Source of the DNA: a virus
Lineage: Duplodnaviria > Heunggongvirae > Uroviricota > Caudoviricetes
Length of the DNA: 64,000 nucleotides
Strand: one strand, 5' to 3'
IMG/VR virus record: IMGVR_UViG_2880389630_000005
Below are positions 8,887-26,901 of this stretch, piece by piece. Within the stretch, counting starts at the first letter, position 1, and the number at the start of each line of letters is the position of its first letter. The notes below the pieces were generated by a model, which had not been told where the DNA came from, did no database searches, and was given only the letters and a program-made list of their open reading frames with translations. The position numbers and the translations under genes are program-made.

Positions 8887-8898
8887 GAGGAAATCAGA

Positions 8899-9114: not shown

Positions 9115-9143
9115 TCTGTAAATATCACTGAGGTAATTTAATT

Positions 9144-9788: not shown

Positions 9789-9789
9789 T

Positions 9790-10195: not shown

Positions 10196-10269
10196 TTTAA
10201 TTCAATTTTAATTGTTATTTAAAACAGGCGTAAACCCGCCGGGGCTGGCTTACGCCTGAATCTAGAGAA

Positions 10270-10662
10270 ATGAAAATGAGTGTTACCGTTATCAATGAAA
10301 TGCTTGGGCGTACATTTAAAGAAGTAGTTAAGAATGAAAACGATGAACTTGTTTTTCGTGGTGATTATTCCCGGGGAGTATGGGGAACCGTGTTTACATT
10401 TTTCCACTTTCAGGAGGGCTGCGAAAAAGTCTGGATTGAGGACATCGTCGGAGACCTTGACGACCTGAAAGATGAACCGCTGACAGAGGCTGAAGTGGTT
10501 ACCGAAGAATGTGATGTTGGGGAAGGTCATCAGACATGGAGTTTCTTTAAGTTCGGCACATCAAAAGGCTGTGTAGTCGTCAGATGGTGCGGTGAGAGCG
10601 AGGGCTTTTATTCTGAGTGCGTTTCACTGAAGCGGGAATTAACTGACGTCTTCGATTTTTAA
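10270..10662 (+). CDS. Hypothetical acidic early protein
   Basis: 130 aa; strongly acidic (many D/E); no recognisable motif. Confidence 0.5.
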   Translation: MKMSVTVINEMLGRTFKEVVKNENDELVFRGDYSRGVWGTVFTFFHFQEGCEKVWIEDIVGDLDDLKDEPLTEAEVVTEECDVGEGHQTWSFFKFGTSKGCVVVRWCGESEGFYSECVSLKRELTDVFDF

Positions 10663-10725
10663 CTCTGACTTCGTTTTTTTATGGCGCAGGTAAACAGGTC
10701 TGCGCCTGAATAAGAGAAATTCATT

Positions 10726-11454
10726 ATGGAAAATAAAAGCAAATACATTGCCAAAATTAAAAAGCTGTTACGCCTTGCCAAAGGAACATCAAGCCCGGAA
10801 GAAGCCGCTAACGCTATTGCAAAAGCCCAGGCTTATATGCGCCAGCATGGTATCAGCGAAAACGACGCTGAATTGTTCGACATTCAGGAAGCTGCCAGCG
10901 CGGGTGCACCGAGTGATGCCAGTACGCCGCCGCTTTATATGCACATCCTGTGTGACCTGGTCTGTAAAGCCTTCGGCGTCGAGTGTTACATCTCCGGTGA
11001 GTACCGGGCTTCTGGTTTACTCAAACGTTACGTGCGTTTTTATGGCCCTGACAGCCGCCCGGAAATCGCGGCTTACGCGTTTGATGTGCTTTCCCGTCAG
11101 ATGATGGCTGAACGCAAGAAATATCAGGATAAACACTGCAAACGTTGCGGCCCGTCCACGCGGGTGGCCCGTGGCGACCAGTTCTGCGAAGGCTGGGTCT
11201 TTGGTGCCCGTGATGTCATTGCGGTGTATGACGTCTCCCCGGAAGAAAAAAGCCGCCTTGAGCTTTACAGAAAGAACCTGCACAGCACTAAAGGACTGCG
11301 CGACGGGGATATGCGTACGGCTAAAGCGTGCCGGGGTGCAGAGTTTGCCGCTACTGCCGGTTTTATCGCCGGGAAAAACGCCAGGCTGCATCAGGGGGTT
11401 AATGGTCAGAGCAACAGACCGCTGGCACTGGGAGGGTGTAACGATGGCTTTTAA
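10726..11454 (+). CDS. DUF2786-like phage protein
   Basis: 242 aa; N-terminal IAKIKKLLRLAKGTSSPEEAANAIAKAQAYMRQH matches the DUF2786 signature (from memory). Confidence 0.65.
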   Translation: MENKSKYIAKIKKLLRLAKGTSSPEEAANAIAKAQAYMRQHGISENDAELFDIQEAASAGAPSDASTPPLYMHILCDLVCKAFGVECYISGEYRASGLLKRYVRFYGPDSRPEIAAYAFDVLSRQMMAERKKYQDKHCKRCGPSTRVARGDQFCEGWVFGARDVIAVYDVSPEEKSRLELYRKNLHSTKGLRDGDMRTAKACRGAEFAATAGFIAGKNARLHQGVNGQSNRPLALGGCNDGF

Positions 11455-11671
11455 ACTTCTTAGTGTTACCGAAGCAATATACCAGCCTCCTGGAGAACGC
11501 CACGAATACAGGATGAATGACGGTAGCGCGGTGGTTGAGTTCCCCGGATATCCGGGGGCTTCCCGGTGGCGGTTCTACGACAGTGTGGGACGTCGGATTA
11601 TTAAAAGAACCGTGCACAACAATATGAAGGCTGCCGTAGAACGTCATAAGAGAAGGTTTAACTGCAAATGA
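11444..11671 (+). CDS. Hypothetical early protein
   Basis: 75 aa; RBS ggaggg upstream of ATG 11444. Confidence 0.4.
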   Translation: MAFKLLSVTEAIYQPPGERHEYRMNDGSAVVEFPGYPGASRWRFYDSVGRRIIKRTVHNNMKAAVERHKRRFNCK

Positions 11672-11898
11672 AAATTGAATTTTATGACCATGGGGTCACC
11701 GCAACTATCACTATTTCTTGTTGGTTCTGGGAGTTCCACCGTTACTTCAGAGTTGTAGATGCTGCGCTGTTTGTTGCACCGGGAGCGTTACATCACAGTG
11801 GAATCGGTATTGTTATGAACACTGTCATCAGCGGTAAAACGGTCCCGATGTTGCGGGCGTTTAAAGTGGCAAAACAGGAGGCTGGCAATGGTCATTGA
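11668..11898 (+). CDS. Hypothetical early protein
   Basis: 76 aa; start overlaps upstream stop. Confidence 0.3.
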   Translation: MKIEFYDHGVTATITISCWFWEFHRYFRVVDAALFVAPGALHHSGIGIVMNTVISGKTVPMLRAFKVAKQEAGNGH

Positions 11899-12178
11899 TA
11901 AAACGATAACGATAGATGTAGCCATGAATACAGGTCTGGCGCTTATCGGTTATGGCTATATCACTTTTATGTCATTCAGGTGGTTGATTTCTTCGATCTT
12001 TAAGCAGCGTGAAAAACGTCGTTGTAAAGACAAGCGCGCGAAGGCGCTAAATACGTTTAATGACGCTTTTGATATTGACCGTATGCAACAGGGCGACCCC
12101 GCACGTGTAATTACCCGGGGAGATATCGTGATTTTGGTATACCGGAGTGAAAAAAATGAGCAGGAGGCGGCGCAGTGA
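11888..12178 (+). CDS. Hypothetical small membrane protein
   Basis: 96 aa; hydrophobic segment LALIGYGYITFMSF; RBS ggagg. Confidence 0.45.
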   Translation: MVIDKTITIDVAMNTGLALIGYGYITFMSFRWLISSIFKQREKRRCKDKRAKALNTFNDAFDIDRMQQGDPARVITRGDIVILVYRSEKNEQEAAQ

Positions 12179-12483
12179 ACCAGCAAACCAGAATAAGCGA
12201 TAAGAGCCTGACCAGACTGATTGCCGATGCTGACAAAATGCTTGATATGCGCGGGCTGATTGTAGACAGAGAGTGGTGGACGCTTTTACGTCAGTCCCTG
12301 ACTGAACTTCAGGAGCGCCGCAAAAACAGCATTTCCGAATCTGGAATCCGTGCTGAAACCCTGAATGATTTAATCCGACATATTGACAGAAACGTGGATA
12401 TTGATGCGATGAAATCGCCGTTTGAACTGTCATCTGAAATTGTGGATTACGTTAATAAGCAACTGCACAAGGAGAATACGTAA
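12175..12483 (+). CDS. Hypothetical early protein
   Basis: 102 aa; GTG start with RBS aggagg. Confidence 0.45.
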   Translation: MNQQTRISDKSLTRLIADADKMLDMRGLIVDREWWTLLRQSLTELQERRKNSISESGIRAETLNDLIRHIDRNVDIDAMKSPFELSSEIVDYVNKQLHKENT

Positions 12484-12844
12484 TGCAGGTGGCATTTGTT
12501 GGCTTATTACCACATCCGATCCGTTTTTGGCTGTCATCGTCACTCATAAAGTCGCATGTTTTTACTGATGACAACGGCATCCCGCCCCCAAAGCGTCGTA
12601 CAGGTATTGCAGCTGCACGACGTGCAGCAAAGAAACGCAGGAGAGCAAAACGATGAAAAACCGTAAAGCAAGACTGCTGATAGCAAAACCCGGGCAGCTT
12701 ATCCGTATCTCAAATCGGCTTGTTGTTCGCTATAGATATCTTGGTTTTAGGGAGTGGTCCTCTATTCGTTTTTACGGTGTCTGGCGAAACAGAAGCGCAG
12801 CCCAAAACCGCTGGAAAAATCACGGTATGTAAAGGAGGTACCAA

Positions 12845-13255
12845 GTGAAGAAAATGATTTTTGTGGCGGCATTGCTAACCATTACCCAACATACGCAGGC
12901 TTCAGCAGTTATTGTGGCATCTACCGCTGCGACCACTGCTGCCGCAGCTGCAGCGAACTCTGCGAATATCGCAAACCAACAGGCACAGCGTGCTGCTAAT
13001 GCATCAGCCAGTGCTCTCCCGATTTCTGTTAAGGGCAGTAAGCAAAATCTGGGGTTCATAACGTGCGGTAAGCGTTCTTATGAAGCTGTAGGATCACTGG
13101 GATGTACGGTATATGGCGACAGTGAGAGCAGAGAAATTCCATGGAAAACGTGGCCCGGATACGTTCTTGGCTCGAAGCTCCCGGCCAGTTATGAGGTAAA
13201 CGCCGTGTCGTTTGATCACTATAACGACGTGGCAACTGTCTATTTCACATACTGA
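12845..13255 (+). CDS. Exported hypothetical protein (signal peptide), candidate moron
   Basis: 136 aa; RBS aaggagg; leader MKKMIFVAALLTITQHTQA; followed by hairpin at 13361-13386. Confidence 0.55.
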   Translation: MKKMIFVAALLTITQHTQASAVIVASTAATTAAAAAANSANIANQQAQRAANASASALPISVKGSKQNLGFITCGKRSYEAVGSLGCTVYGDSESREIPWKTWPGYVLGSKLPASYEVNAVSFDHYNDVATVYFTY

Positions 13256-13360
13256 GGCCCGGCATGAAATTTTCTGAATCACGGAGCAACAACACGATGA
13301 AAGCCATCACCGTAACTCGACGTTCCTGATTTCGCGAGTTGTTTAAACAGTAATCAAATG

Positions 13361-13386
13361 CAGACCAAAACATGTTTTTTGGTCTG
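13361..13386 (+). terminator. Hairpin CAGACCAAAA-loop-TTTTGGTCTG, terminator-like
   Basis: 10-bp perfect stem; T-rich 3' arm. Confidence 0.45.
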
Positions 13387-13409
13387 CCAAAAGTAGTGTT
13401 TTGGTCATT

Positions 13410-13688
13410 ATGAAGATTGAACAAATCGGAATGGCAGCCTTCCGGCAACAGGCTGAAAGCGGTGGCATGGATGAGTTCGTCGTGCAGCGGTTCGGTGGTG
13501 TGTATCACCTCTTCGCTGTGAATCGCCGCGCCGGGGTATCCTATTTTCTACAGGAACGCCGGGGCGATTACAAGACGTGGCTGTCTCTTGACCGTGCCGC
13601 CGCGTTCCTGTCAGGGATTGGCGTTTCACGTTTTACCGTGCGTTTTGAGGATAACAAACATGCTGAAAAAGATGATCGGGGCCATTAA
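13410..13688 (+). CDS. Hypothetical protein
   Basis: 92 aa from ATG 13410; overlaps start of GemA-like gene. Confidence 0.3.
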   Translation: MKIEQIGMAAFRQQAESGGMDEFVVQRFGGVYHLFAVNRRAGVSYFLQERRGDYKTWLSLDRAAAFLSGIGVSRFTVRFEDNKHAEKDDRGH

Positions 13689-14058
13689 AGCTGGTCAGGC
13701 GTATCTGGGGTGGGATGATGCCCTTTATCGCCAGACGCTGGCCCGCCTGACCGGTAAAACCAGCACCACACGCTGCAATCTCGATGAACTGCGCATCATC
13801 CGGGAATACATGCACGAACAGGGATTCCCGCGCAAGGCACCCACCGGTAAAGGTCGCCGCCCTCGTGTTGCAATGAGCAGAAAATCAGTATTATCCAAAA
13901 TTGAAGCGTTGCTGGCTGATGCAGGTCGTTCCTGGGCGTATGCAGAAGGACTGGCATCTCACATGTATAAGCAACATGTGATCGAATGGCTGACGGATGA
14001 ACAGCTTTTTGGAGTGATGGTGGCGCTGGTTAAAGATTCAAGAAGGAGAAATCAATGA
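13660..14058 (+). CDS. GemA-like protein (Mu gp16 family)
   Basis: 132 aa from ATG 13660 with RBS gagga; position just upstream of mor-like gene. Confidence 0.65.
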   Translation: MLKKMIGAIKAGQAYLGWDDALYRQTLARLTGKTSTTRCNLDELRIIREYMHEQGFPRKAPTGKGRRPRVAMSRKSVLSKIEALLADAGRSWAYAEGLASHMYKQHVIEWLTDEQLFGVMVALVKDSRRRNQ

Positions 14059-14531
14059 TGAAAAAATGGTTGTTTTGTTTAGTAGGGGTTATTTTCTCTT
14101 GTTCTGTGCTGGCACAGACAGAGGAACAGGCGCAAAAGGAACTGAAACGTTATCAGGATATGAAGCCATTGGCTGAACAGATGCTTCGGGAAAGTGGAAA
14201 ACTTTATTACGCTATGCCAGAAGCTGCATCGCAGTATCAGCAGGGAAATATTGAAGAGTGGAAGAATATCAAAAAAGGACTAAAACAACTGGATGAACAG
14301 GCCAGTAAACTGGGGGACGACCCGCTTGATCCTGTGTATGGTTCCTGCATAAAAATGAAAAACCAGCTACAGGATTACTGGTCTAACGTTATCAGGGATG
14401 ACAGGCAGTTTCTGGAACGTTCAAGAAATCAGTTTAAAGAATATCGTATGGATTGTTTTGATTCGTTTGTTTTTGGTAAAGAGCAAATAGAATCAAGAAA
14501 AGGCCTGGTTATTCTAGACCTGACTAAATAA
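14055..14531 (+). CDS. Exported hypothetical protein (signal peptide), candidate moron
   Basis: 158 aa; leader MMKKWLFCLVGVIFSCSVLA; strong terminator immediately downstream. Confidence 0.55.
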   Translation: MMKKWLFCLVGVIFSCSVLAQTEEQAQKELKRYQDMKPLAEQMLRESGKLYYAMPEAASQYQQGNIEEWKNIKKGLKQLDEQASKLGDDPLDPVYGSCIKMKNQLQDYWSNVIRDDRQFLERSRNQFKEYRMDCFDSFVFGKEQIESRKGLVILDLTK

Positions 14532-14543
14532 GACTTAGTTTAG

Positions 14544-14568
14544 CCCCTGCCATGCAGGGGATTTTTTT
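14544..14568 (+). terminator. Rho-independent terminator
   Basis: Stem CCCCTGC/GCAGGGG followed by TTTTTTT. Confidence 0.8.
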
Positions 14569-14631
14569 GTGGTCTGTACAGGCGATCATGTATGGCTATA
14601 ATAACAGTAAGTTACTACCGGAGACGCCATC

Positions 14632-15099
14632 ATGCAGACCTTCAGTGAAACAGATCTTCGCGATGCGCAGGCACTGCTGCCCGATTCCGTGCAGCAACTG
14701 ATTAGCGTGATTGGCTTCCCCGCCCTGACCCGGTTAATCCGTTCTTTTGGTGGTGTGACGTTAAGCGGTAAAACCGGCGCACACGCCGAACGCACCGGCG
14801 GTGTCCATGCCCTGTTACATGACGTGCTGACCGAAGACGAAATCAACAAACTGATCCGCTTTCTTGGCGGTGCACCGTTTTACATTCCCCGTTGTGATCA
14901 TGCTTTACGTGCCCTGCGTAACACCCGTTTTATGGCTGATTTACAGCAGCATGTAAAAGGCGGATGCTCACACCGACAGGCGCTGGCACTGCTCTGTCCC
15001 CGTTACGGCATTTCAGACCGGTACGCATGGCAACTGATACACCGACGACAAAAACAGACTTCGCTGAAAAGCCCCACCCAGGTGGGGCTTTTTGATTAA
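14632..15099 (+). CDS. Mor/C-family transcription activator (middle operon regulator-like)
   Basis: 155 aa; FYIPRCD and C-terminal RYGIS...AWQLIHRR resemble Mu Mor (from memory). Confidence 0.65.
   Translation: MQTFSETDLRDAQALLPDSVQQLISVIGFPALTRLIRSFGGVTLSGKTGAHAERTGGVHALLHDVLTEDEINKLIRFLGGAPFYIPRCDHALRALRNTRFMADLQQHVKGGCSHRQALALLCPRYGISDRYAWQLIHRRQKQTSLKSPTQVGLFD
15071..15093 (+). terminator. Rho-independent terminator overlapping the mor-like stop
   Basis: Stem GCCCCACC/GGTGGGGC followed by TTTTT. Confidence 0.65.
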
Positions 15100-15124
15100 T
15101 GGGCCTCAGAAAAAGGAGACACTT

Positions 15125-15403
15125 ATGACCAACTATACGGCACTTGGCGAGTATACGGCCTACTCAGAGCAGGCACGGGATGCTGCCGGACGCCGCTTCG
15201 CTTATATGAAAAACCTGGCCAACCAACTAAACCGAATGGCCGAACAACCGGATATGGTTGTTCAGGAAGAAGCGTTACAGTGTGCCATTGCTGACATCAT
15301 CGCCAGCGAAAACGAGATGCGCGCAGCGATGGAAAAGGCGAACGCCTCTGCTCCGCTTTGTAATAAACCTCTTATTACGCCGGATTCTCTTTCCCGCTTC
15401 TGA
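15125..15403 (+). CDS. Hypothetical protein
   Basis: 92 aa from ATG 15125; RBS aaaaaggaga. Confidence 0.4.
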   Translation: MTNYTALGEYTAYSEQARDAAGRRFAYMKNLANQLNRMAEQPDMVVQEEALQCAIADIIASENEMRAAMEKANASAPLCNKPLITPDSLSRF

Positions 15404-15585
15404 TTTAGCACCCCGCCGCCGCGGGGTGCTGAACTCCCCCAGCAGTACCCACCACACCAGACCGTTTACCCTGTCCACTCAGACCACAAGGCACCTTAAG
15501 GGATAGCGCCCTGCAAAAGGCTTTTGTGCCTTTGACAGGGTGTTATTTACGGGCCGTCAGTGGCTCAGATTTACAGGAGAAACTC

Positions 15586-15978
15586 ATGTCTGAACCCTTA
15601 TCAGGCGGCGGAGCTGTGGCAGTCACCATCGGTGGTGCCAGTGTGTTTGGCCTTCTCACCAATACCGATTTCGGGGTCGTGGTGGGCGCGTTTGCCGGGG
15701 CGCTTTTTGTTGTCACGCAGCAGAAAGAAATCCCGGTATGGCGAATGGCTATTCATCTGCTCGTCGCGTTTGTGGTTGGCGTTCTGGGGGCTGGCGTGGC
15801 TGCGTCACTGATGCAGTGGCTGACCCACTACAACGACAAGCCGCTCGATGCATTGTGTGCGGTCGGTGTCTCGGCGTTATCCATCAAGATACTGACCTTT
15901 CTTTATCAACAGGAAATTTCATCGCTGTTCGGCCTGTTTTCCAGACTGCGCGGCGGAGGGGGTGGAAATGGAAAGTAG
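15586..15978 (+). CDS. Putative holin-like membrane protein
   Basis: 130 aa from ATG 15586 with RBS aggaga; 3-4 predicted TM segments; upstream of endolysin. Confidence 0.5.
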   Translation: MSEPLSGGGAVAVTIGGASVFGLLTNTDFGVVVGAFAGALFVVTQQKEIPVWRMAIHLLVAFVVGVLGAGVAASLMQWLTHYNDKPLDALCAVGVSALSIKILTFLYQQEISSLFGLFSRLRGGGGGNGK

Positions 15979-16264
15979 CCTTGCCGGTATCGTGAACGTC
16001 TGGCTGTGTCTCGCCATTGTGCTGGGGTTGTTTGTGTATCGCCGCCACGGTGCGGCGCATAAACCGATGATTACCTGGCTGGCGTACTGGCTGATGCTCG
16101 GCTACGTCATCATCCCGTTCCGCTGGCTGTCCGGTACATACACGCACTCCAGCTGGCTGGTTGTGGCGCTGAATCTGGTTTTCTGTGCGCTTATCGTGTG
16201 GGCGCACGGGAATTTGTCAAAAATCCTTTCGTTACTGAGGCATCCACATGAAATCAAAAGATAA
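15968..16264 (+). CDS. Small membrane protein (holin/antiholin-like)
   Basis: ~98 aa; three hydrophobic segments; lies between holin-like gene and endolysin. Confidence 0.4.
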   Translation: MESSLAGIVNVWLCLAIVLGLFVYRRHGAAHKPMITWLAYWLMLGYVIIPFRWLSGTYTHSSWLVVALNLVFCALIVWAHGNLSKILSLLRHPHEIKR

Positions 16265-16793
16265 AATTTTTGATGAAGTCCTGGGCAAAGAAGGCGGTTA
16301 TGTCAATCACCCGGATGATAAGGGCGGTCCGACCAAATGGGGCATTACGGAAAAAGTCGCCCGCGCCCACGGATACCGTGGCGATATGCGCGATTTAACC
16401 CGCGAACAGGCGCTGGACATCCTTGAAGCCGATTACTGGTATGGCCCGCGATTTGACCAGATCGCCGCATTATCCCCTGATATTGCCGCAGAGCTGTGTG
16501 ATACCGGTGTGAATATGGGGCCAACCGTGGCGTCCAGAATGCTTCAGCGCTGGCTGAATGTGTTCAATCTGCGCGGCAGGCTGTACCCGGATATGGACGC
16601 AGACGGACGCATCGGGCCTCGTACCATCAGTGCATTGCGCGCCTTCCTGAATAATCGCGGTCAGGACGGTGAACGGGTGATGCTGACGGCCCTGAACTGT
16701 ACGCAGGGGGACCGCTATCTGGAACTGGCGGAGAAACGCGAGGCTAATGAATCGTTTGTTTATGGCTGGCTGAAGGAGCGCGTGGCGATATGA
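16248..16793 (+). CDS. Endolysin, GH108-type muramidase with peptidoglycan-binding domain
   Basis: 181 aa; GGYVNHPDDKGGPTKWGIT N-terminus typical of GH108/PG_binding_3 proteins. Confidence 0.85.
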   Translation: MKSKDKIFDEVLGKEGGYVNHPDDKGGPTKWGITEKVARAHGYRGDMRDLTREQALDILEADYWYGPRFDQIAALSPDIAAELCDTGVNMGPTVASRMLQRWLNVFNLRGRLYPDMDADGRIGPRTISALRAFLNNRGQDGERVMLTALNCTQGDRYLELAEKREANESFVYGWLKERVAI

Positions 16794-16972
16794 CGCGTCA
16801 GCACTGGACCCACAGAACGCCACGTAAAGCCGCGCGCTGTGTTCTGGCCCTGTTTCTGGTGATGTTGCTTCCGGTGGGATGCACAGACATTAACAGAACG
16901 GGACAGCTGTTAGACGCGGCGGCGCAGGTCTGCCGGATTATTGACGGCATCCGGCAGTGTTCACAGAACTGA
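16790..16972 (+). CDS. Putative lipoprotein (possible spanin component)
   Basis: 60 aa; hydrophobic leader ending LLPVGC; start overlaps endolysin stop. Confidence 0.4.
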   Translation: MTRQHWTHRTPRKAARCVLALFLVMLLPVGCTDINRTGQLLDAAAQVCRIIDGIRQCSQN

Positions 16973-17199
16973 TTTTTCGAAGGTCTGACACAGTGAGCAT
17001 TATCAGATTTACAGAATACAGAGGTTCAGGAGGTGCTGGCGCTGTCATGGTGCTCGCTGAACGCATCACCCATTTTTACCGTCAGTACGGTACACATGAT
17101 GGCACGGTCATTGAACTGGATACCGGGAAAAACGTGTTTGTTCTTGAAAATCCCGACGAAGTTCAGCGCAGGATTGAACAGGCTCAGAAGGACACTTAA
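16957..17199 (+). CDS. Hypothetical protein
   Basis: 80 aa ORF; start uncertain (alternative GTG 16993). Confidence 0.3.
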   Translation: MFTELIFRRSDTVSIIRFTEYRGSGGAGAVMVLAERITHFYRQYGTHDGTVIELDTGKNVFVLENPDEVQRRIEQAQKDT

Positions 17200-17699
17200 T
17201 GGCGTGGTCACAGGATATCAGGGACAAAGTCCGTAACGGGTACATCTTTGACCAGCTTCCGCTGGATATCGTCGCCATGAAATACGCCGTGCCGCACGAT
17301 ACCGCGCGGCGCTGGAAAACGCAGGCGATGAAGAACGGCGACGACTGGGACAAGCTGCGGGCCGCTCACGCGCTCGCCGGTGACGGGCTGGAAAGTGTCG
17401 CCCGCACCGTACTTATCAGTCTGGTGGTGAAGTGTCAGACGACGCTTGAGCGGCTGAACCAGAACCCGGACATCCCGCCGCAGGAGTCCGTCGAACTGCT
17501 GGCGAGTCTGTCTGACAGTCTCAGTAAGGCGGTGGCCAGCAGCAAAAAAATCCTGCCGGAAACCGATCGGCTCGCCACGGCACTGGAAGTGGTGCAGCGG
17601 CTCGGCGCGTTCATCAAGGAGCGTCACCCGGCACAGTATGCCCCGTTTCTTGAGGTGCTCGAAGGCTTCGCTAAAGAGCTTGAGGATAATTTCAGTTAA
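17199..17699 (+). CDS. Mu gp27-like protein (putative terminase small subunit)
   Basis: 166 aa; position and N-terminal similarity to Mu gp27. Confidence 0.65.
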   Translation: MAWSQDIRDKVRNGYIFDQLPLDIVAMKYAVPHDTARRWKTQAMKNGDDWDKLRAAHALAGDGLESVARTVLISLVVKCQTTLERLNQNPDIPPQESVELLASLSDSLSKAVASSKKILPETDRLATALEVVQRLGAFIKERHPAQYAPFLEVLEGFAKELEDNFS

Positions 17700-17745
17700 C
17701 CACAGCGGCCCGGTTTTCCGGGCCGTCTGATATTCGGGATTTGTA

Positions 17746-18486
17746 ATGCAAAAACAGATTATTGGTAACGCAACGTTGTATTGCGGTGATGTTCTTGATG
17801 TGCTGCCGGCGTTATCTGAACGTTTTGATGCCGTCATTACCGACCCGCCTTACAGCAGTGGTGGCACACACAAATCAGACCGCAGCATGGCCCCTTCGGA
17901 CAAGTATGTCGGTCACACCCAGTATGCCGAGTTCAGCGGGGATAACCGCGACCAGCGCAGCTGGGCATACTGGAGCACCCTGTGGATGTCCGGGGCTGCC
18001 CGCCTTGTGCGCCCCGGTGGTTATGTCATGGTGTTCAGTGACTGGCGACAGCTTCCCACCATGACCGACGTTTTTCAGGCCGGTGGTGTGCTGTGGCGTG
18101 GTCTTGTTGTCTGGGATAAAACGCAGGCTTCCCGTGCGCCACACACCGGCTATTTCCGGCATCAGGCCGAGTATGTGGTCTGGGGCAGCAACGGAAAACT
18201 CGACAAATGTCCGCACGGTGGCCCGTTCCCGGGTGTGATTACGCAGCGTGTTGTCCCGTCCGAAAAACTGCACATGACCGCAAAGCCGGTTCAGCTGATG
18301 GCCGAGCTGGTTAAACCGCTGGCACCGGATGCGCACGTTCTCGATCCGTTTATGGGAAGCGGCACCACCGCCATCCCTGTACTTGCCCGTGGCGGACGGT
18401 TTACCGGCATTGAAATGACTAACCAGTATTTTGATATCGCCTGCGCACGTATTGAAAAAGCGCAGGCAGAAGCAGCGCAGGTGTGA
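17746..18486 (+). CDS. Orphan DNA methyltransferase (N6-adenine or N4-cytosine; beta-class)
   Basis: 246 aa; catalytic DPPY (ITDPPYSSGG) precedes AdoMet motif FMGSGTT; no adjacent restriction gene. Confidence 0.9.
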   Translation: MQKQIIGNATLYCGDVLDVLPALSERFDAVITDPPYSSGGTHKSDRSMAPSDKYVGHTQYAEFSGDNRDQRSWAYWSTLWMSGAARLVRPGGYVMVFSDWRQLPTMTDVFQAGGVLWRGLVVWDKTQASRAPHTGYFRHQAEYVVWGSNGKLDKCPHGGPFPGVITQRVVPSEKLHMTAKPVQLMAELVKPLAPDAHVLDPFMGSGTTAIPVLARGGRFTGIEMTNQYFDIACARIEKAQAEAAQV

Positions 18487-18487
18487 C

Positions 18488-20128
18488 GTGGCAAAACGTA
18501 AACTTTCCATTAAAGAGTTTCAGAGAAGCCTGCAGGAGTACATCGCCAACCTCCGCCAGACCATCGAGGCTGAATGTCTGGGGTTCGATGTTAACCCGCA
18601 GGCCACACAGGCCCGCCGGGCGGCAGTCTGCGACCCGGTGACGGGCTACGATTATTTTGTCGAAAACTATTTCCCGCATTACGTCCGCAACCCGGCAAAA
18701 AGTGAGCTGCATAAATACCTGTTCAGCCGTCTGCCACAGGTTGTGGCAAGCCCGGACCCGGAGAACGACGCCATCGCCGCCCCCCGTGGTGAAGCAAAAT
18801 CCACGCTGGTGACTCAGCTGTTTACCCTGTGGAACATTATCCGGGCCATTAAACATTATCCGGTCATCATTATGGACAGTATCGACCAGGCTTATCCGAT
18901 GCTGGAAGCCATCAAGGCTGAACTGGAATTTAACCCCCGTTTAAAAAACGATTTCCCGGAAGTGTGCGGGCAGGGTCGCGTCTGGCGTATGGGGACCATC
19001 GTCACGGCCAACAATATCAAGGTGACCGTTGCCGGTAGTGGTAAAAAGCTGCGTGGTCTGCGCCACGGTCCGTACCGTCCTGACCTGGTTATCCTCGACG
19101 ACATCGAGAACGACGAGATGGTGCGTAACCCGGAGCAGCGCGACAAGCTGCATGACTGGCTCACCAAAACCGTGATGCCGCTGGGCGAGGCTGGCGGTAA
19201 AACCGATATTATTTATATCGGGACCATCCTGCATTACGACTCCGTACTGTCACGCACGCTGAATAACCCGATGTGGAAAACGGCCCGCTTTAAGGCTGTC
19301 ATTCAGTGGCCTGCCAATATGAAGCTGTGGGACGAGTGGGAAGAACTCATCCGCAACAAACAGCCGGAAGCAGCAGAGGCACTTTACCGACAGAACGAAG
19401 CCGACATGCTCGCCGGGTCGGTGGTGTCATGGGCGGCGCGTCCCCTGCTGGCACTGATGAAAATCCGTGTCCGTGACGGTCATGACACCTTTGATTCTGA
19501 ATACCAGAACGACCCGGTCAGCGGTGAAGATGCGCTGTTTGCGGGCTGCATTAAGTTCTGGGTTAACCGTCTTGATGAATGGGTGTTTTATGGTGCTGTT
19601 GACCCCAGTCTCGGGAAGAAAAACAAAAACCGCGACCCGTCGGCCATTCTCGTGGGGGGCTTTAACCGCTTTACCGGCATTCTGGATGTGGTTGAAGCCG
19701 ATATCCGCCGACGTCTGCCAAACAAACTTATCGAAGACGTGATTAAGTATCAGCGGGAATACCACTGTCTGTGCTGGTCGTTTGAGTCCGTCCAGTTTCA
19801 GGAGTTTCTGCGTACCGTGCTGGTTGAGCGTTCGGCGGCGCTGGGCGTGCCGGTTCCGGCGCTGCCGGTCATCCCGCTGGAGGATAAAGCGCTGCGTATT
19901 GAGTCCCTTCAGCCGCATATGGCCAATGGCCTGATCCGCATCAGTCCGGCACATCAGACGCTGATTGACCAGCTGCGCCACTACCCCAAAGCCGACCACG
20001 ATGATGGCCCGGACTGTCTGCACATGCTGTGGACGCTGGCGGTATCGCGCAGCGCAAAATTTCAGATACACACCCCACGCAGCAGCGGGCGTGACCGTGG
20101 CGGGCGTTTTGGTTCAGGAGGATGGTAA
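18488..20128 (+). CDS. Terminase large subunit (Mu gp28-like)
   Basis: 546 aa from GTG 18488; longest ORF 18431-20128; position before portal. Confidence 0.85.
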   Translation: MAKRKLSIKEFQRSLQEYIANLRQTIEAECLGFDVNPQATQARRAAVCDPVTGYDYFVENYFPHYVRNPAKSELHKYLFSRLPQVVASPDPENDAIAAPRGEAKSTLVTQLFTLWNIIRAIKHYPVIIMDSIDQAYPMLEAIKAELEFNPRLKNDFPEVCGQGRVWRMGTIVTANNIKVTVAGSGKKLRGLRHGPYRPDLVILDDIENDEMVRNPEQRDKLHDWLTKTVMPLGEAGGKTDIIYIGTILHYDSVLSRTLNNPMWKTARFKAVIQWPANMKLWDEWEELIRNKQPEAAEALYRQNEADMLAGSVVSWAARPLLALMKIRVRDGHDTFDSEYQNDPVSGEDALFAGCIKFWVNRLDEWVFYGAVDPSLGKKNKNRDPSAILVGGFNRFTGILDVVEADIRRRLPNKLIEDVIKYQREYHCLCWSFESVQFQEFLRTVLVERSAALGVPVPALPVIPLEDKALRIESLQPHMANGLIRISPAHQTLIDQLRHYPKADHDDGPDCLHMLWTLAVSRSAKFQIHTPRSSGRDRGGRFGSGGW

Positions 20129-20131
20129 TTA

Positions 20132-21727
20132 ATGGCACAGCTTGTTGATATTTACGGACGCCCGCTGAAACGTGAGGCACTCAAAACAACGCAGTCGGTC
20201 AGAGTGGCGGAACGACTGCGCATCTATCCCGATCACCCGTCCCGTGGTCTGAACATCAGAAAACTGCCGCGTATTCTGGAAGCAGCCGAACGCGGTTATC
20301 TTCCGGCGCAGGCGATGCTGTTTGCGGATATGGAAGAACGTGATGGCCATCTGTTCGCCGAGATGGAAAAGCGCAAAAAAGCGTTGCTGACGCTGGACTG
20401 GTCGGTGGAGCCGCCCCGCAATGCCTCGAAGGCAGAAAAGGAGCTGGCCGCCGCCGTGGATGAATGGCTGCACGGCATCCCGGACATGGAGGACATCATC
20501 CTCAACGGGATGAGCGGTGTCGGTTACGGCTTCAGCTGTCAGGAAATCAGCTGGGCGTTCGTGGATAAAACATGGTTACCGGATGCGGTGACGCTGCGCC
20601 CGCATAACTGGTTCATAACTCTGCCGGAACACAATGACGAACTCCGGCTGGATGACGGCAACCGTGGGGAAGACGGTAAGGACGGTTCCGCATTGTGGCC
20701 GTTCGGCTGGCTGGTTCACCGTTACAACGCCCGGTCGGGGTTCCTGGGTTCATCCGGCCTGTTCCGCGTACTGGTCTGGCCGTATCTGTTTAAAAACTTC
20801 GCGCTGCGTGATATGGCGGAATTTCTGGAGATTTACGGTCTTCCAGCGCGCATTGCGTACTATGCACAGGGCACCAGTGACGCGGACCGGGACAACATTC
20901 TTGAGGCGCTGGTCAATCTGGGGCATGAAGCGGTGGCAGCCCTGCCGCAGGGTAACGAAATCGAGTTCAAGGAAGCCGCATCCGGCGGACCGGAGGCATT
21001 CATGTCGATGGTGGAATGGGCGGAGCGTACCACCTCAAAAGTGATTCTGGGCAGTACGCTGACCAGCCAGGCCGACGGTAAAACCTCCACCAACGCACTG
21101 GGTAATGTCCATAACGAGGTCCGGCACGACATTCTGACCGCTGATGCACGCCAGCTGTCCGGCATGTTCAGCAGTCTGATACAGATGATGGCCAGTCTCA
21201 ACGGCTGGCAGGATATCCCGTCACGCCGTCTTCCGCGACTGGTGTTTGATGTGCAGCAGGAAGCCGACATTAAGGGCGTGGCGGAAGCCGTCAGCGTGCT
21301 GCTCAACAATGTGGGGATGAAGGATATCCCGGCGTCGTGGGTACGCAAAAAAACCGGTATCCCCACCCCGAAAGACGGCGAAGAGGTACTGGTGCCGGTG
21401 GCACAGCGTCTCCCTGTGCAGGCGGGCCTCAGCCAGTTGCGTGAGCGGCTGAATGTCGTCGCACTCAGTCAGCAGGACAACGGGGAGGACGACCCGGCAC
21501 AGAACGCCATCGACCGGGCAGAGCTTCCGGCAGAGGCCATCGCGCAGGGGATGAACGAACTGGTGGCCCCACTGGTGCAGGCCATACAGGAAGGCCGGGA
21601 TGCAGACGAGGCTATGAACGTACTGGCGGAAGCGTGGCCGGAGCTGCCGGATGAAACGCTGCGGCAGTTGCTGACACAGGCATTCTTTGTGGCGGATATC
21701 TGGGGGCGACTGAATGCCGACAGCTGA
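20132..21727 (+). CDS. Portal protein (Mu gp29-like)
   Basis: 531 aa; follows terminase; Mu portal-like. Confidence 0.9.
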   Translation: MAQLVDIYGRPLKREALKTTQSVRVAERLRIYPDHPSRGLNIRKLPRILEAAERGYLPAQAMLFADMEERDGHLFAEMEKRKKALLTLDWSVEPPRNASKAEKELAAAVDEWLHGIPDMEDIILNGMSGVGYGFSCQEISWAFVDKTWLPDAVTLRPHNWFITLPEHNDELRLDDGNRGEDGKDGSALWPFGWLVHRYNARSGFLGSSGLFRVLVWPYLFKNFALRDMAEFLEIYGLPARIAYYAQGTSDADRDNILEALVNLGHEAVAALPQGNEIEFKEAASGGPEAFMSMVEWAERTTSKVILGSTLTSQADGKTSTNALGNVHNEVRHDILTADARQLSGMFSSLIQMMASLNGWQDIPSRRLPRLVFDVQQEADIKGVAEAVSVLLNNVGMKDIPASWVRKKTGIPTPKDGEEVLVPVAQRLPVQAGLSQLRERLNVVALSQQDNGEDDPAQNAIDRAELPAEAIAQGMNELVAPLVQAIQEGRDADEAMNVLAEAWPELPDETLRQLLTQAFFVADIWGRLNADS

Positions 21728-22880
21728 CGATGTTGACCTGGGTTATGCGTACACCCTGAAGCCGGAAGAAGCGATTAAGTATTTCGAAAGCAAGGGATAC
21801 GTTATCGGCTTCCGCTGGCACGATGTGAAGGACATCGCCAACGCCCGGGCGTTCACTGTGGCGGGCGTGCTGAAACTGGATGTGCTGAAGGATATCCGTG
21901 ATGGCCTGACGGCCACACTGGCTGACGGCGGGACGTTCCGGGAGTTTGCTGCACAACTGGAACCACTGCTGGAATCAAAAGGCTGGCTGGGTAAAAAACT
22001 GATTGTGGACGAGGACACCGGCGAACTGCACGGCAGACAACTGACGCCGCGCCGGTTGCGCACGATATTTGATACCAACATTCAGTCGTCATATAACGCC
22101 GGGCGTTATCAGCAACAGATGGCGAACGTGGCTGACCGGCCTTATTTTGAGCGCGTGGCGGTGATGGACCTTCACACCCGCCCGAAACACGCCGCCCTGA
22201 ACGGTTTTACCGCCCGGGCGGATGACCCTGTCTGGGAGTATTTCTACGCGCCGGACGGATACGGATGCCGCTGCCGTATCCGTGCGCGTTCGGCGTCTGA
22301 TGTGGAGAAATACGGCCTGACGGTGCAGAGCAGCGAGGGGCGACTGGTTGAGGTTGAACAGGAATATGACCAGCCGGGCCAGACCATCAGAACGATGGGG
22401 CTGAAGATGCCGGATGGCTCCGTGTATACCGCCGACCCGGGCTTCGGATTTAATCCCGGTCGGGTGGCATGGCAGCCGGAACTGGAAAAATATGATTACC
22501 GTAGCGCCCGCCAGTATGTCACCGGCACCCTGACCGGGCCGGATTTTGCCCGGGGACTGGCGAACGTCAGCGAACTGGATGCGCGCCAGCGATATCCGCT
22601 GGCCATCCGTTCACCGGAACAGGTCGCTGCCACGGGCGCTGCACGGCAGACGGTAAACCTTACGGCTGACGTCATGAAACGCCTCAGTGCAACAAACACA
22701 CCCCCGACCGCCGCCGACTATGTGCTGATGCAGCAGACCATCGAACGGGCGGAGCATGTCACACAGGACGGCAACGCGTGGCGGTATGCGTTACAGTCGG
22801 GCGACCGCTGGTCGGTGGTGACAGTTGAGGATGACGCGCTGACAGACTGGGTTATGCAGGATACCCCGGAGGCATCATGA
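21714..22880 (+). CDS. Head morphogenesis protein (Mu F-like)
   Basis: 388 aa; HTRPKHAALNGF...GYGCRCRIRA motif of the Mu F family. Confidence 0.9.
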   Translation: MPTADDVDLGYAYTLKPEEAIKYFESKGYVIGFRWHDVKDIANARAFTVAGVLKLDVLKDIRDGLTATLADGGTFREFAAQLEPLLESKGWLGKKLIVDEDTGELHGRQLTPRRLRTIFDTNIQSSYNAGRYQQQMANVADRPYFERVAVMDLHTRPKHAALNGFTARADDPVWEYFYAPDGYGCRCRIRARSASDVEKYGLTVQSSEGRLVEVEQEYDQPGQTIRTMGLKMPDGSVYTADPGFGFNPGRVAWQPELEKYDYRSARQYVTGTLTGPDFARGLANVSELDARQRYPLAIRSPEQVAATGAARQTVNLTADVMKRLSATNTPPTAADYVLMQQTIERAEHVTQDGNAWRYALQSGDRWSVVTVEDDALTDWVMQDTPEAS

Positions 22881-23428
22881 GCAACGGTAAACTGGATATT
22901 AAGATTGATTTAAGCGCGTATAACACCACGCTGGGGAAACTGATTCGTTCCGTGAAGGACCGGCACGACCTGATGACGGCACTTGCGGGTTCCATGCTGG
23001 ATGCGGTTGAGACTAACTTTGAACAACAGGGTCGCCCGAAATGGATGGGCTGGAGTCCGGCTTATGCGAAGCGACGCGGCCCCGGGCAAATCCTTCAGAA
23101 GTCCGGGCGACTGGCTGCCAGTATCCGCTCTGCGGTTAACAATAACGAGGCCACGGTCGGGACAAACGTCCGTTATGCCCGTATCCACAACGAAGGCGGC
23201 GAAATCCGCCATCAGGCACGGACGCAGAACCTGTATTTTAAACAGTACAAAAACGGCAGCGTCAGCACCCGCTTTGTGAAAAAGCGCAACAGTAATTTTG
23301 TGCAGAGCGCAACTGTCGGGGCATATACGGTCAACATGCCCGCGCGCCCCTTCCTTCAGCTCGTGCAGGACGACATCGACGAGCTGGAGAACACCGCAAA
23401 CCGCTATTTTGCGCGTGTGATTGACTGA
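22877..23428 (+). CDS. Virion morphogenesis protein (Mu G-like)
   Basis: 183 aa; position after F; ARPFL C-terminal motif. Confidence 0.8.
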   Translation: MSNGKLDIKIDLSAYNTTLGKLIRSVKDRHDLMTALAGSMLDAVETNFEQQGRPKWMGWSPAYAKRRGPGQILQKSGRLAASIRSAVNNNEATVGTNVRYARIHNEGGEIRHQARTQNLYFKQYKNGSVSTRFVKKRNSNFVQSATVGAYTVNMPARPFLQLVQDDIDELENTANRYFARVID

Positions 23429-23583
23429 ATGGCGACAAACGCGCTGTAATCGGCTGTGACGGCATAAACGCCTCACGGATGAGGCATAACAGCACCGCGC
23501 CCCATAAATGCCGTCAGAATCGTTTTTAAAAGGGTTTTAAAAACGGTTTTATTTCCCTTTTTATCCTTTCGCGTTATGGCAGG

Positions 23584-24753
23584 GTGCTGAACACCCTCCA
23601 CAGTACCCCGGCTTCCCCTTCCGTCATCATGCCGCGTATGAAACTGAAAATTGCGGCGTTAAGCCTCGAAATTACTAAAGCAACCCACAGCGAAATCCAG
23701 CTGTTACCGGCAGGCGAGTTCAGCGCGGTGGATGGTCGCCCACATACCGATGAAGTCGAAAGCGGTAAATGGGTGCTGACTGCCGAACTGGCCGCGCAGC
23801 TTGTCGCACAGGTGGCCGCCCGCGCCACGCCTTTTGTCATTGATTACGAACATCAGACGCTGCGCGCCGTAAACAACGGCAAGCCCGCCCCGGCGGCGGG
23901 CTGGTTCAGCCAGGTGGAATGGCGTGAAGGTTCGGGCTTGTATGCCACCGGTGTGGAGTGGACGGAGAACGCGGCGGCCATGATTGCCGCCGGTGAGTAC
24001 AAATTTATTTCCCCGGTATTTGGATACAACCGGCGCGGCGAAGTCATTGAACTGTTACACGCCGCACTGACCAATACCCCGGCGCTGGACGGTATGGACG
24101 CGGTCATGCTGGCTGCGGCCAGCCGTCTGGCGAGTCTGTCAACTGAAACGGAGACCACAACAGTGGATGAAGAACTGTTAAACGATTTGCTGTCCAGTCT
24201 GCGCTGGATGCTTAACCTCCCGGTTACCTCAACGGCGGAAGATATCAAAAACGAGCTGCAAAAGGTCGTTGACATGATTTCGAACGGTCAGGGAACGGCG
24301 GCGGCATCCGTCAGCCTGCTGGCCCTGCTGAATCAGAAAGATGAGCAAATCGCCAGCCTGTCAGCCAGTGCCTATGACCCGTCAAAACACATTTCCCTTG
24401 CTGCCTTCGAAGAACTTCAGGGGCGTTATGCCGCACTGGCGCAACAGTCCGGTGAGGCCGAAGCCGGGACACTGATTCAGGCGGCGCTGTCTGACGGGCG
24501 ACTGCTTCCGGCACAGGAAGACTGGGCGAAAGATTACGCCAGCCGCGATATCAACGGCTTTAAGTCCTGGCTGGAGAACGCACCGAAACTTGTTGCGCTC
24601 AGTCAGACACAGACCGGCGGCAAAGCCCCCAAAACGCCGTCGCCTGCCCCGGCGCAGATTAAAACCGGCGATGACGTCGATGTCGATATCGCCATTTGTT
24701 CAATGATGGGCGTCGATCCAGAGGATGTCGCCCGTTACGCAGGAGATGAGTAA
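23584..24753 (+). CDS. Head maturation protease/scaffold (Mu I-like)
   Basis: Up to 389 aa; true start may be ATG 23629 or 23638; position between G and major head. Confidence 0.8.
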   Translation: MLNTLHSTPASPSVIMPRMKLKIAALSLEITKATHSEIQLLPAGEFSAVDGRPHTDEVESGKWVLTAELAAQLVAQVAARATPFVIDYEHQTLRAVNNGKPAPAAGWFSQVEWREGSGLYATGVEWTENAAAMIAAGEYKFISPVFGYNRRGEVIELLHAALTNTPALDGMDAVMLAAASRLASLSTETETTTVDEELLNDLLSSLRWMLNLPVTSTAEDIKNELQKVVDMISNGQGTAAASVSLLALLNQKDEQIASLSASAYDPSKHISLAAFEELQGRYAALAQQSGEAEAGTLIQAALSDGRLLPAQEDWAKDYASRDINGFKSWLENAPKLVALSQTQTGGKAPKTPSPAPAQIKTGDDVDVDIAICSMMGVDPEDVARYAGDE

Positions 24754-25149
24754 ATGGATCGCAATACCCCCTACCGTGACGGCGAACTGAACCCGGTGCC
24801 GGTTGCCGCTGCGACCGAAATTTTTGGTGGTCATATGGTGGCCGTTAACGCATCCGGTTATGCCGTTCCGGCCAGTGCCACGGCCTCACAGATTACGCTG
24901 GGCGTGTCTGATGGCTGGGCGGATAACAGTACCGGCAGCGATGGCGATGTCACCGTTCTGGTGCGTTGCGGCAAAGATTTTCTGATGGTGAACAGCACCT
25001 CAGACCCGGTCACACAATCGCAGGTCGGCAAGCTGTGCTACGTGGAAGACAGCGTAACCGTGGCAAAAACCGACAACAGCAGCGCCCGTCCTGTCGCCGG
25101 GAAAGTGATCGGCATCTGTGGCGATGGCGTCTGGGTTCATTTCAGTTAA
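24754..25149 (+). CDS. Hypothetical head-associated protein
   Basis: 131 aa; between protease/scaffold and major head genes. Confidence 0.55.
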   Translation: MDRNTPYRDGELNPVPVAAATEIFGGHMVAVNASGYAVPASATASQITLGVSDGWADNSTGSDGDVTVLVRCGKDFLMVNSTSDPVTQSQVGKLCYVEDSVTVAKTDNSSARPVAGKVIGICGDGVWVHFS

Positions 25150-25159
25150 GGAGCAAAAC

Positions 25160-26068
25160 GTGTTAGTCAACGTTAAAAACGTCAAACAGATTTTTATCAA
25201 TCTGAAGGCCACCTTCCAGAAAGCCTTCGACCAGTCGCCAACTGACTGGCAGAAGGTGGCAATGGAAGTGCCATCAAACGGCAAGGAAAACGACTACAGC
25301 TGGTTAAGTCGTTTCCCGAAAATGCGCGAGTGGATTGGCGACAAGGTCGTTAAATCACTGGCGGCATTTAACTACACCATCCGTAACAAGGACTGGGAAG
25401 CCACGGTTGAAGTCGATCGTAACGACATCGAGGACGACCAGATTATGGGCTATGCCCTTCAGGCAAAAGGAGCCGGACAGTCGGCGGCAGAACTCCCGGC
25501 AGATATTGTGGCGTCCCTTATCAGTAACGGTTTTACCAATCCCTGTTACGACGGCCAGATGTTCTTTGATACCGACCACCTGGTCGCCGGTAAATCGGTG
25601 TCCAATAAAGGCACCAAAAAACTCAAAGTTGGCTCGCTTGCCGAGGCGAAAGCCTCCTACGGTGCCGCCCGTACTGCCATGCGCAGCCTGAAAGATGACG
25701 AAGGCGCATCCCTCAAAATTCGCCCGAATCTGCTGGTTGTGCCACCGGCGCTGGAAGATGACGCGAACTACCTGATGACCGCCGAGAAGTTCCCGGACGG
25801 TACGCCGAACCCGTACCGCAGTACCGCCGACGTGCTGGTGATGCCGGAGCTGGCGTCGGATTCTGCGTGGTTCCTGTTTGACACCACCAAACCGGTGAAA
25901 CCGCTGATTTATCAGCTGCGTAAAAAGCCTGTTTTTGTGGAGCAGACGGACTACAACAGCGACAACGTGTTCAAGCGTAAGAAGTTCCTGTTTGGTGCCG
26001 AAGCGCGCTGTAACGGCGGTTACGGCTTCTGGCAGATGGCATTTGGTTCTGATGGTACGACGGAGTAA
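25160..26068 (+). CDS. Major head subunit (Mu T-like)
   Basis: 302 aa from GTG 25160 with RBS aaggagcaaaac; longest ORF begins 25118. Confidence 0.9.
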   Translation: MLVNVKNVKQIFINLKATFQKAFDQSPTDWQKVAMEVPSNGKENDYSWLSRFPKMREWIGDKVVKSLAAFNYTIRNKDWEATVEVDRNDIEDDQIMGYALQAKGAGQSAAELPADIVASLISNGFTNPCYDGQMFFDTDHLVAGKSVSNKGTKKLKVGSLAEAKASYGAARTAMRSLKDDEGASLKIRPNLLVVPPALEDDANYLMTAEKFPDGTPNPYRSTADVLVMPELASDSAWFLFDTTKPVKPLIYQLRKKPVFVEQTDYNSDNVFKRKKFLFGAEARCNGGYGFWQMAFGSDGTTE

Positions 26069-26071
26069 TGC

Positions 26072-26413: not shown

Positions 26414-26416
26414 CCC

Positions 26417-26848: not shown

Positions 26849-26901
26849 TTACTGAAATTGAACGGGCGCTGGTTGAACGTCTGCGTTGTGGTCTGGGGAA
26901 A

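Follow-up and report, generated by a model that had tools for sequence, protein, structure and literature searches.

Enzymes resembling the one described here are known from Mu-like prophages, other prophages and conjugative plasmids. In Mu-like prophages, adenine DNA methyltransferases (MTases) have been found at the position of the Mu gene mom, and the DNA was protected from many restriction endonucleases (PMC3299994). The prophage enzymes M.EcoGI and M.EcoGII were found to be silent in lysogens; unregulated hypermethylation by M.EcoGII was toxic and RNA was methylated as well (PMC5778455). The plasmid enzyme M.EcoGIX produces N6-methyladenine (m6A) promiscuously at SAY, acts on single strands and at plasmid entry, and apparently works with DNA polymerase I (PMC7736820). 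In the ParB-Tls locus (Iyer et al., 2013), phage DNA-modification genes lie just upstream of the large terminase gene (terL), and MTases adjoining terL are predicted to modify DNA around packaging (PMC6536676, PMC4738411). Here, we analysed a gene at 17746..18486 (+ strand) of IMG/VR virus record IMGVR_UViG_2880389630_000005 (Caudoviricetes), a stretch of 64 000 nucleotides hereafter called the window, which encodes a solitary DNA amino-MTase of the beta class. The reading that we favour, with a probability of about 0.7, is that this gene is N6-adenine MTase cargo, expressed late, whose product would methylate phage DNA before packaging so that the progeny escape restriction; the adenine target, the timing of expression and the protection against restriction are the parts of it that we infer.

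The reading frame runs uninterrupted from ATG to TGA, codes for 246 amino acids and carries the RefSeq label 'DNA-methyltransferase' (WP_021536553.1). Its product matches Pfam PF01555 N6_N4_Mtase (82.3 bits; gathering threshold 26.7), PHROG 67 'DNA methyltransferase' (E = 1e-55) and, over the full length of the model, the PADLOC type II MTase model MTase_II PDLC03321 (E = 1.6e-64, 215 bits). The catalytic motif IV, DPPY (amino acids 33–36; 17842..17853, +), is found in the context ITDPPYSSGG, within the product segment FDAVITDPPYSSGG, and the S-adenosylmethionine (AdoMet) binding motif I, FMGSGTT (amino acids 202–208; 18349..18369, +), in the context LDPFMGSGTTA. Alignment also revealed a motif X-like H-x-T-x-K-P element (HMTAKP, amino acids 176–181; 18271..18288, +), which pairs with HPTQKP of M1.HpyAVI and HPTEKP of M.EcoGIX. 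When all open frames of at least 80 amino acids in the 64-kb window were scanned for [DNS]PP[YFW], the motif occurred only once, in this protein. Motif IV is N-terminal to motif I, here and in 33 out of 33 aligned relatives, which is the order of the beta class.

The family alignment comprised 33 members from phages of Proteobacteria and Actinobacteria. Invariant stretches are (i) TDPPYSSGG, (ii) K53-Y54, (iii) F-DWRQL, (iv) WRG..W.K, (v) H.T.KP (H176, T178, K180 and P181) and (vi) D.F.GS. Substitution of catalytic residues, which the sequence-only reading of this DNA had named as evidence against its own proposal, was not seen: T32-D33-P34-P35-Y36-S38-G39 of the motif IV region and D200, F202, G204 and S205 are the same in every member. 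An AlphaFold (AF2) model based on 36 homologues was obtained with a mean predicted local distance difference test (pLDDT) of 84.9 and a predicted template modelling score of 0.85. Searched against the PDB with Foldseek, it returned CcrM (6pbd), M1.HpyAVI (5hfj) and M.BceJIV (8urk) as top matches (E ~1e-15; template modelling scores 0.67–0.73, query-normalised; 22–23% identity); M1.HpyAVI aligns full-length and CcrM has an extra C-terminal domain. A rotifer N4-cytosine MTase, TTHA0409, M.MboIIA, M.PvuII and M.RsrI were also retrieved, the matches as a whole ranging from 1e-15 to 1e-10 in E-value and from 17 to 23% in identity. The model thus confirms a Rossmann-type fold, superimposable on solved beta-class enzymes; at 17–23% identity, the target sequences of these enzymes are not transferable. 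Taken together, reading frame, PF01555, PHROG 67, alignment and predicted fold bear out the earlier description of a beta-class MTase with DPPY ahead of FMGSGTT, and identify the product as such an enzyme with its catalytic and AdoMet motifs intact.

PF01555 takes in N6-adenine and N4-cytosine enzymes alike. N4-cytosine enzymes of the beta type typically carry SPPY or SPPF. Since none of the 33 aligned members departs from DPPY and the best sequence matches among solved structures are adenine enzymes, N6-adenine is the likely target, rather than cytosine. The protein has no inserted recognition domain, with only ~50 residues from the WDK strand to H.T.KP. Three segments of the model are of low confidence (amino acids 38–41, 58–66 and 131–137, the last with pLDDT <50), from which we infer loops that would become ordered on DNA. 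The third is part of a stretch (amino acids 127–140, QASRAPHTGYFRHQ; 18124..18165, +) whose mean column conservation of 0.84 is exceeded only by that of motif IV; this combination of conservation and low model confidence makes it a likely DNA-contacting loop.

The gene belongs to a Mu-like prophage of ~35.8 kb inserted in cirA (4331..40149, +), delimited from its junctions and from the annotation of E. coli strain S13 (NZ_CP107117.1), to which positions 16800–19600 are 100% identical. A restriction endonuclease was neither annotated nor detected in the prophage, where a novel small nuclease among the unannotated open reading frames (ORFs) is conceivable; the 50-odd annotated genes are all accounted for or small, and PADLOC gave zero matches on nine unassigned prophage ORFs. 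The genes mom and com are absent from the prophage as well, and the 47-nt spacer 5' of the MTase gene is too short for com. From the absence of all three in the annotated sequence, the MTase is solitary. Its designation as an orphan without partner restriction enzyme therefore holds on the prophage annotation and the PADLOC search, and the genes flanking the prophage (cirA, yeiG, folE and lysP) are core E. coli genes.

The closest described relatives in phages are Bpm of Bordetella phage BPP-1, gp20 of the Burkholderia P2-like phage KS5, the MTase of Chuche and gp04 of Smp131. Like the MTase of the window, they are solitary phage genes of ~250 codons, homologous over their full length, and they share with it TDPPYSSGG, DWRQL, HxTxKP and DPFxGSG. 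The location differs: Bpm follows cro and the P2-like relatives stand behind Com, whereas the gene studied here lies between a DUF1804 gene and terL and has no Com. Among characterised enzymes, the nearest relative found over the full length is M.EcoGIX of plasmid pESBL (227 amino acids; 26% identity, collinear, E = 1e-23). M.EcoGIX and M.BceJIII, which are encoded in leading regions of IncI/IncF conjugative plasmids, are also beta-class enzymes of minimal size lacking an inserted recognition domain. Both are anti-restriction cargo of mobile elements and silent in the resident state, two traits that we count as shared with the prophage enzyme. Against NF010253 (PRK13699-type) the latter scores 75.6 bits, far below the cut-off of 244, and is for that reason better regarded as a relative of the M.EcoGIX family than as a member. 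Weak homologues occur on thousands of conjugative plasmids.

Prophage-borne adenine MTases offer a looser parallel. M.EcoGII, a non-specific adenine MTase from prophages of E. coli O104:H4, is a solitary beta-class enzyme with DPPY before FxGxG, as here, but is 349 amino acids long, with ~170 residues between its motif IV and X-I regions that the MTase of the window does not have. It was rejected as a homologue: BLASTP with M.EcoGII, whose sequence came from a machine reading of the PMC11551740 supplement, aligned only amino acids 6–55 (E = 3e-4) and 176–230 (E = 3e-5). Hia5, Hin1523, Nma1821 and B3 ORF48 resemble the present case in that Mu-like elements without Mom carry an AdoMet-dependent adenine MTase. 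These enzymes are, however, Dam-related and have DPPY near residues 180–194 (D194A mutants were made for Hia5 and Hin1523; 178–181 in B3 ORF48) instead of at 33–36. Hia5, Hin1523 and Nma1821 are found behind com at the mom position of Mu, and B3 ORF48 behind com and upstream of the tape-measure gene; the gene of the window is located mid-genome, with no com upstream. Hia5 and Hin1523 are non-specific, and Hia5 methylates up to 61% of adenines on lambda DNA. A Mom substitute of the Hia5/Hin1523 type was accordingly rejected, those enzymes being Dam-like and BLASTP against B3 ORF48 aligning the DPPY motif only. That Mu itself uses Mom instead, as the sequence-only reading stated, is correct. The role of Mom, late adenine modification before packaging and escape from restriction, is the one proposed here; Mom, however, belongs to an unrelated acyltransferase superfamily and carries out a carbamoylmethyl/acetamido modification. 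It is under the control of Com and Dam, and its gene is at the right end of Mu.

The position directly upstream of terL is shared with the ParB-Tls locus. On the other hand, ParB is absent here, both as a gene and as a domain: the gene preceding the MTase matches DUF1804 only and the MTase lacks ParB_N. An MTase next to terL is a described, recurrent pattern and not unusual (PMC6536676, PMC4738411).

Alignment of the junctions showed that the gene lies in a presence/absence cassette of 743 bp (17735..18477, +), made up of an 11-nt leader and the MTase gene minus its last three codons. In a survey of 5426 complete E. coli genomes, the gene was found at 90–100% identity in 35, enteropathogenic E. 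coli E2348/69 included, and it is intact and annotated in 15 out of 15 listed records of these carriers. The query 16800–19600 matched 54 genomes, ~19 of which keep the DUF1804–terL pair (~97% identical) without the MTase gene. In these sister prophages, of which strain 47-1826 has one, the 7-nt sequence TGTATAC replaces the cassette, whereas the DUF1804 protein (WP_000312575.1), a ~97% identical terL stretch and the same terL start context are retained. The existence of such near-identical DUF1804–terL regions in ~19 genomes indicates, at the sequence level, that the gene is optional and dispensable cargo. The leader of the Serratia MTase orthologue likewise contains TGTATAC. In Mu-like prophages of Yersinia and Serratia (83 and 77% amino acid identity, respectively), the same DUF1804–MTase–terL layout and the same 2-nt gap before terL are found. 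The ratio of non-synonymous to synonymous substitution rates (dN/dS) relative to these orthologues is 0.04–0.09, with dS saturated, and the divergence of the MTase roughly parallels that of the flanking genes. Judging from these comparisons, the gene is under strong purifying selection and is neither a recent nor a decaying passenger.

The cassette itself includes neither promoter nor terminator, and a consensus scan of 14603–18700 found no sigma-70-like site. The neighbours are tightly packed on the same strand, with Mor, holins and endolysin upstream and terL, portal and MuF downstream. A GC-rich hairpin, CGGCCCGG-TTTT-CCGGGCCG, was identified by RNA folding in the spacer 3' of the DUF1804 stop codon (17706..17725, +; −29.2 kcal/mol, z = −4.1 for 17690–17770); it has no clear T-tract, and the terminator scan made no call there. 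We considered it as a part of the cassette, either the terminator of a moron or an element of Com-type control, and rejected this, as it is kept in the MTase-less version and a comparable one is found in Yersinia and Serratia. On this distribution, the hairpin belongs to the backbone rather than to the cassette, where it may act in RNA stability, attenuation or protein binding.

According to the favoured reading, induction would lead to a Mor-dependent late transcript spanning the lysis genes, the DUF1804 gene, the MTase gene and terL. Since the MTase gene is promoterless, its transcription would depend on that of the late genes and hence follow induction, and it would be translated just ahead of terL. 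The enzyme is expected to bind AdoMet through FMGSGTT and to flip the target adenine into the DPPY pocket. Replicated phage copies, and unavoidably the host DNA in which the Mu-type copies reside, would then be methylated shortly before headful packaging. Progeny genomes would arrive methylated in the next host and resist those restriction enzymes that are blocked by m6A at their target sites; the MTase would thereby serve this prophage as Mom serves Mu and as experimentally verified MTases serve FluMu-type prophages (PMC3299994). Escape from restriction through DNA modification, already suggested in the sequence-only reading, is in our view the most economical explanation.

Several observations weigh against this reading. 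A literature search found no experimental target or activity for homologues with >40% identity. A search for the signature DPPYSSGG returned nothing. The available portion of the Propionibacterium freudenreichii methylome paper, which includes strain JS7 with a PFR1-like phage, makes no assignment for the PF01555 gene; papers on Shewanella, Paracoccus and Mannheimia phages deal with other families, and no methylome paper for E2348/69 was found among the titles listed. The ~19 near-identical prophages that do without the gene imply that any benefit is conditional. Furthermore, the prophage (4331–40149) is depleted in GATC (49 observed versus 151.5 expected under a Markov model, z = −8.3) and in 6-bp palindromes (no GAATTC, GGCGCC or GCATGC, one GCCGGC and two CTGCAG). 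From this composition, it also uses restriction-site avoidance, so that methylation is not its sole defence. Finally, Mu-type phages are protected at entry by other means, and the size of the benefit is uncertain.

A refinement of the late self-methylation reading, which we regard as possible but unlikely, is that the enzyme is promiscuous or nearly independent of sequence: an adenine hypermethylase that would be the beta-class counterpart of Mom, Hia5/Hin1523 and M.EcoGII. The minimal architecture described above and the kinship with the promiscuous M.EcoGIX (SAY; 26% identity) point in this direction, as does the location of the P2-like phage homologues (46–59% identity) behind Com, a translational control found likewise upstream of Mom and of the non-specific Hin1523 and Hia5. 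In addition, E. coli and Mycobacterium phage members, at 46–48% overall identity, have the putative DNA loops in common, which suggests a host-independent target. On the other hand, M1.HpyAVI is similarly compact (232 amino acids) and recognises a defined site. The full-length match to PDLC03321 (215 bits) also indicates that close relatives may belong to ordinary site-specific systems, and Com is lacking in the window. The toxicity of unregulated hypermethylation by M.EcoGII is a further argument against, but one that late lytic expression would make irrelevant. Extended to the family as a whole (404 clusters), the proposal becomes that of minimal beta-class adenine MTases with very relaxed or no sequence specificity. 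Besides Mom and the Dam-like Hia5 family, they would be a third, independently arisen means for transposable and P2-like phages to cover their DNA with modified adenine; this too we put forward tentatively, with the odds clearly against it. If true, it would explain Com translational control over the P2-like relatives, extend the Mom-substitute theme of Mu-like phages to a new enzyme class and supply chromatin-footprinting methods with an m6A enzyme that is non-specific and very small; the MTase could also be a compact tool enzyme. A substrate other than adenine in DNA, either N4-cytosine in DNA or adenine in RNA, is much less probable. It would be compatible with the breadth of PF01555, with the presence of the rotifer N4-cytosine MTase and M.PvuII among the structural matches and with RNA methylation by M.EcoGII (PMC5778455). 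Against it stand the invariant DPPY and the best matches by sequence, which are to DNA enzymes acting on adenine. A prophage rRNA MTase of Shiga toxin-producing E. coli, considered as a precedent, was rejected: with its DPPW motif it belongs to an MT-A70-like family, not to this one, and it depends on a partner subunit.

The remaining alternatives concern function rather than substrate. It had been suggested that the enzyme could alter host methylation in the lysogen, and one may extend this to an epigenetic regulator expressed from the repressed prophage, changing host gene expression in the manner reported for the Staphylococcus aureus prophage MTase pamA. Orphan prophage MTases that change host phenotype do provide a precedent (PMC12435837), and purifying selection on the gene would fit. 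We nevertheless consider such a role improbable and do not retain the suggestion: the cassette, with its 11-nt leader and no promoter of its own in the 14603–18700 scan, sits deep in a run of late genes, lysogens keep M.EcoGI and M.EcoGII silent (PMC5778455) and, to go by the title of a Burkholderia study, prophage methylation there required induction. Moreover, homologues occupy late or packaging slots in unrelated phages, and near-identical sister prophages do without the gene. That the modification serves packaging itself, by marking or regulating the pac site or the terminase, or by being physically coupled to packaging, seems if anything slightly less probable. In phage P1, Dam methylation regulates pac cleavage. 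In the window, the MTase gene adjoins terL (stop codon at 18486, GTG at 18488, which we count as a 2-nt gap), and the Shine–Dalgarno sequence of terL, AGGTG, falls within the final MTase codons, so translational coupling is probable; the ParB-Tls literature predicts modification as a packaging step. However, the MTase-less sisters have the same DUF1804 protein and a ~97% identical terL stretch, which means that packaging does not need the MTase, provided that those prophages are viable. The Salmonella Mu-like and BPP-1 homologues are located away from terL, and there is no ParB domain here. The least probable alternative, and a very improbable one, is a decaying, non-functional remnant. The absence of the gene from ~19 sister prophages could be taken in this sense, but the ORF is intact with all motifs kept, dN/dS is 0.04–0.09, the structural model is confident and the gene is intact in each of the 15 listed records.

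Similarity searches place the gene in a large family. A word-indexed protein search returned 7598 proteins at E ≤ 1e-5, the protein cluster of the MTase has 440 member sequences, and HMMER, run exhaustively against 50%-identity representatives, gave 404 clusters at E ≤ 1e-30 and 4022 at E ≤ 1e-10. Some members are fused to a ParB_N, relaxase or helix-turn-helix (HTH) domain. In cultivated phages, the best match is that of Escherichia phage Chuche (55% identity), followed by Bpm of Bordetella phage BPP-1 (52%) and by the homologues of Propionibacterium phage PFR1 (49%), of mycobacteriophages including Bernal13 (47%) and of Stenotrophomonas phage Smp131 (46%). A Salmonella Mu-like prophage has the homologue between holin and lysozyme genes, an E. 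coli prophage has it before HNH-TerS-TerL and BPP-1 has it after cro. In Chuche, Smp131 and KS5, which are P2-like, and in a prophage of Delftia, it directly follows a Com zinc-ribbon gene. As far as these gene orders tell, the MTase behaves as a mobile accessory gene, usually in late or packaging-proximal slots.

A solitary phage MTase next to a terminase gene is of a well-described kind, and this one is already annotated in RefSeq; as it stands, it represents routine phage anti-restriction cargo. Two aspects are of wider use. The natural sister prophages with and without the gene (~97% identical flanks) are a ready-made isogenic pair for determining the contribution of a solitary phage MTase to host range. 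Also, the family is large and spread over phages of Proteobacteria and Actinobacteria, and we found no member with a published target; a single characterisation would annotate hundreds of clusters.

The sequence-only reading placed the MTase gene between small and large terminase genes, which is well founded for the downstream neighbour only. The latter, terL (18488..20128, +; GTG start), was identified from TIGR01630 (E = 2.4e-24), NF033889, PHROG 38 (E = 5e-143) and RefSeq; direct BLASTP against Mu gp28 gave no significant similarity. The upstream gene (17199..17699, +) codes for a 166-amino acid HTH DNA-binding protein of the DUF1804 family (PF08822, E = 2.8e-52; PHROG 756 'DNA binding protein') in the position of a small terminase. 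In its AlphaFold model (pLDDT 75.8), a three-helix HTH at the N terminus leads into long helices, a predicted layout that is compatible with a small terminase, as in many TerS proteins. However, no homology to Mu gp27 (PF11985) was found, phmmer gave no significant match in the PDB and Foldseek of the model against the PDB returned nothing at E ≤ 0.001 (best E = 1.9), so 'small terminase' stands as a positional assignment.

The prophage genes are on the + strand. The left part contains the repressor, a Mu-type transposase, an AAA ATPase and small early genes. In the middle part are found GemA, Mor, two holins, a GH108 endolysin, two small ORFs, the DUF1804 gene, the MTase gene and terL. The right part carries the Mu-type portal, MuF, protease and gpT-like capsid genes, the tail genes and a 792-amino acid tail-fibre ORF, directly after which the prophage ends. 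Megablast of 17000–20200 against cultivated phage genomes gave no match; on this evidence, the lineage is known from bacterial genomes only. The hexamer ACTGGT is common to both junctions (positions 4250–4460 and 39930–40230 were inspected), which fits transposition with duplication of 5 bp of the target, either ACTGG or CTGGT.

A few further observations were made on related elements. In the Delftia P2-like prophage (Logan contig ERR1314973_508), an uncalled Com-type ORF at 4802–5098 of the retrieved stretch overlaps the MTase start and encodes a zinc ribbon (...IRCGQCGRKLA...IKCPRCGTMN...); pairs of Com and MTase genes in P2-like phages are thus more common than gene calls suggest. In Salmonella Mu-like prophages (7042–8759 of the retrieved stretches), the DUF1804–terL junction is occupied by other small genes, one of them on the opposite strand. 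This junction appears to be a hot spot for cargo in general. A 217-amino acid database protein, 100% identical over 70% of the MTase, combines a holin domain (PF05449) with PF01555; a mis-call or the rearrangement of a prophage copy is the probable cause. In the survey of complete E. coli genomes, two copies of the MTase gene were found on plasmid records; large plasmid records with a near-identical gene are NZ_OZ547097.1 (E. coli, 249-kb record), which carries the flanking DUF1804 gene and terL too, and NZ_CP043265.1 (E. albertii, 200-kb plasmid). These copies are consistent with Mu-type transposition into plasmids.

At the insertion site, cirA, the gene for the colicin I and catecholate-siderophore receptor, is split into pseudogene fragments on the − strand (~3347–4330 and 40150–41160), and the lysogen should be without functional CirA. 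At the other end of the late region, the tail-fibre ORF of the window (37567–39945, 792 amino acids) is unbroken, while the RefSeq annotation of S13 gives a truncated pseudogene and a separate fragment with a 1.1-kb gap.

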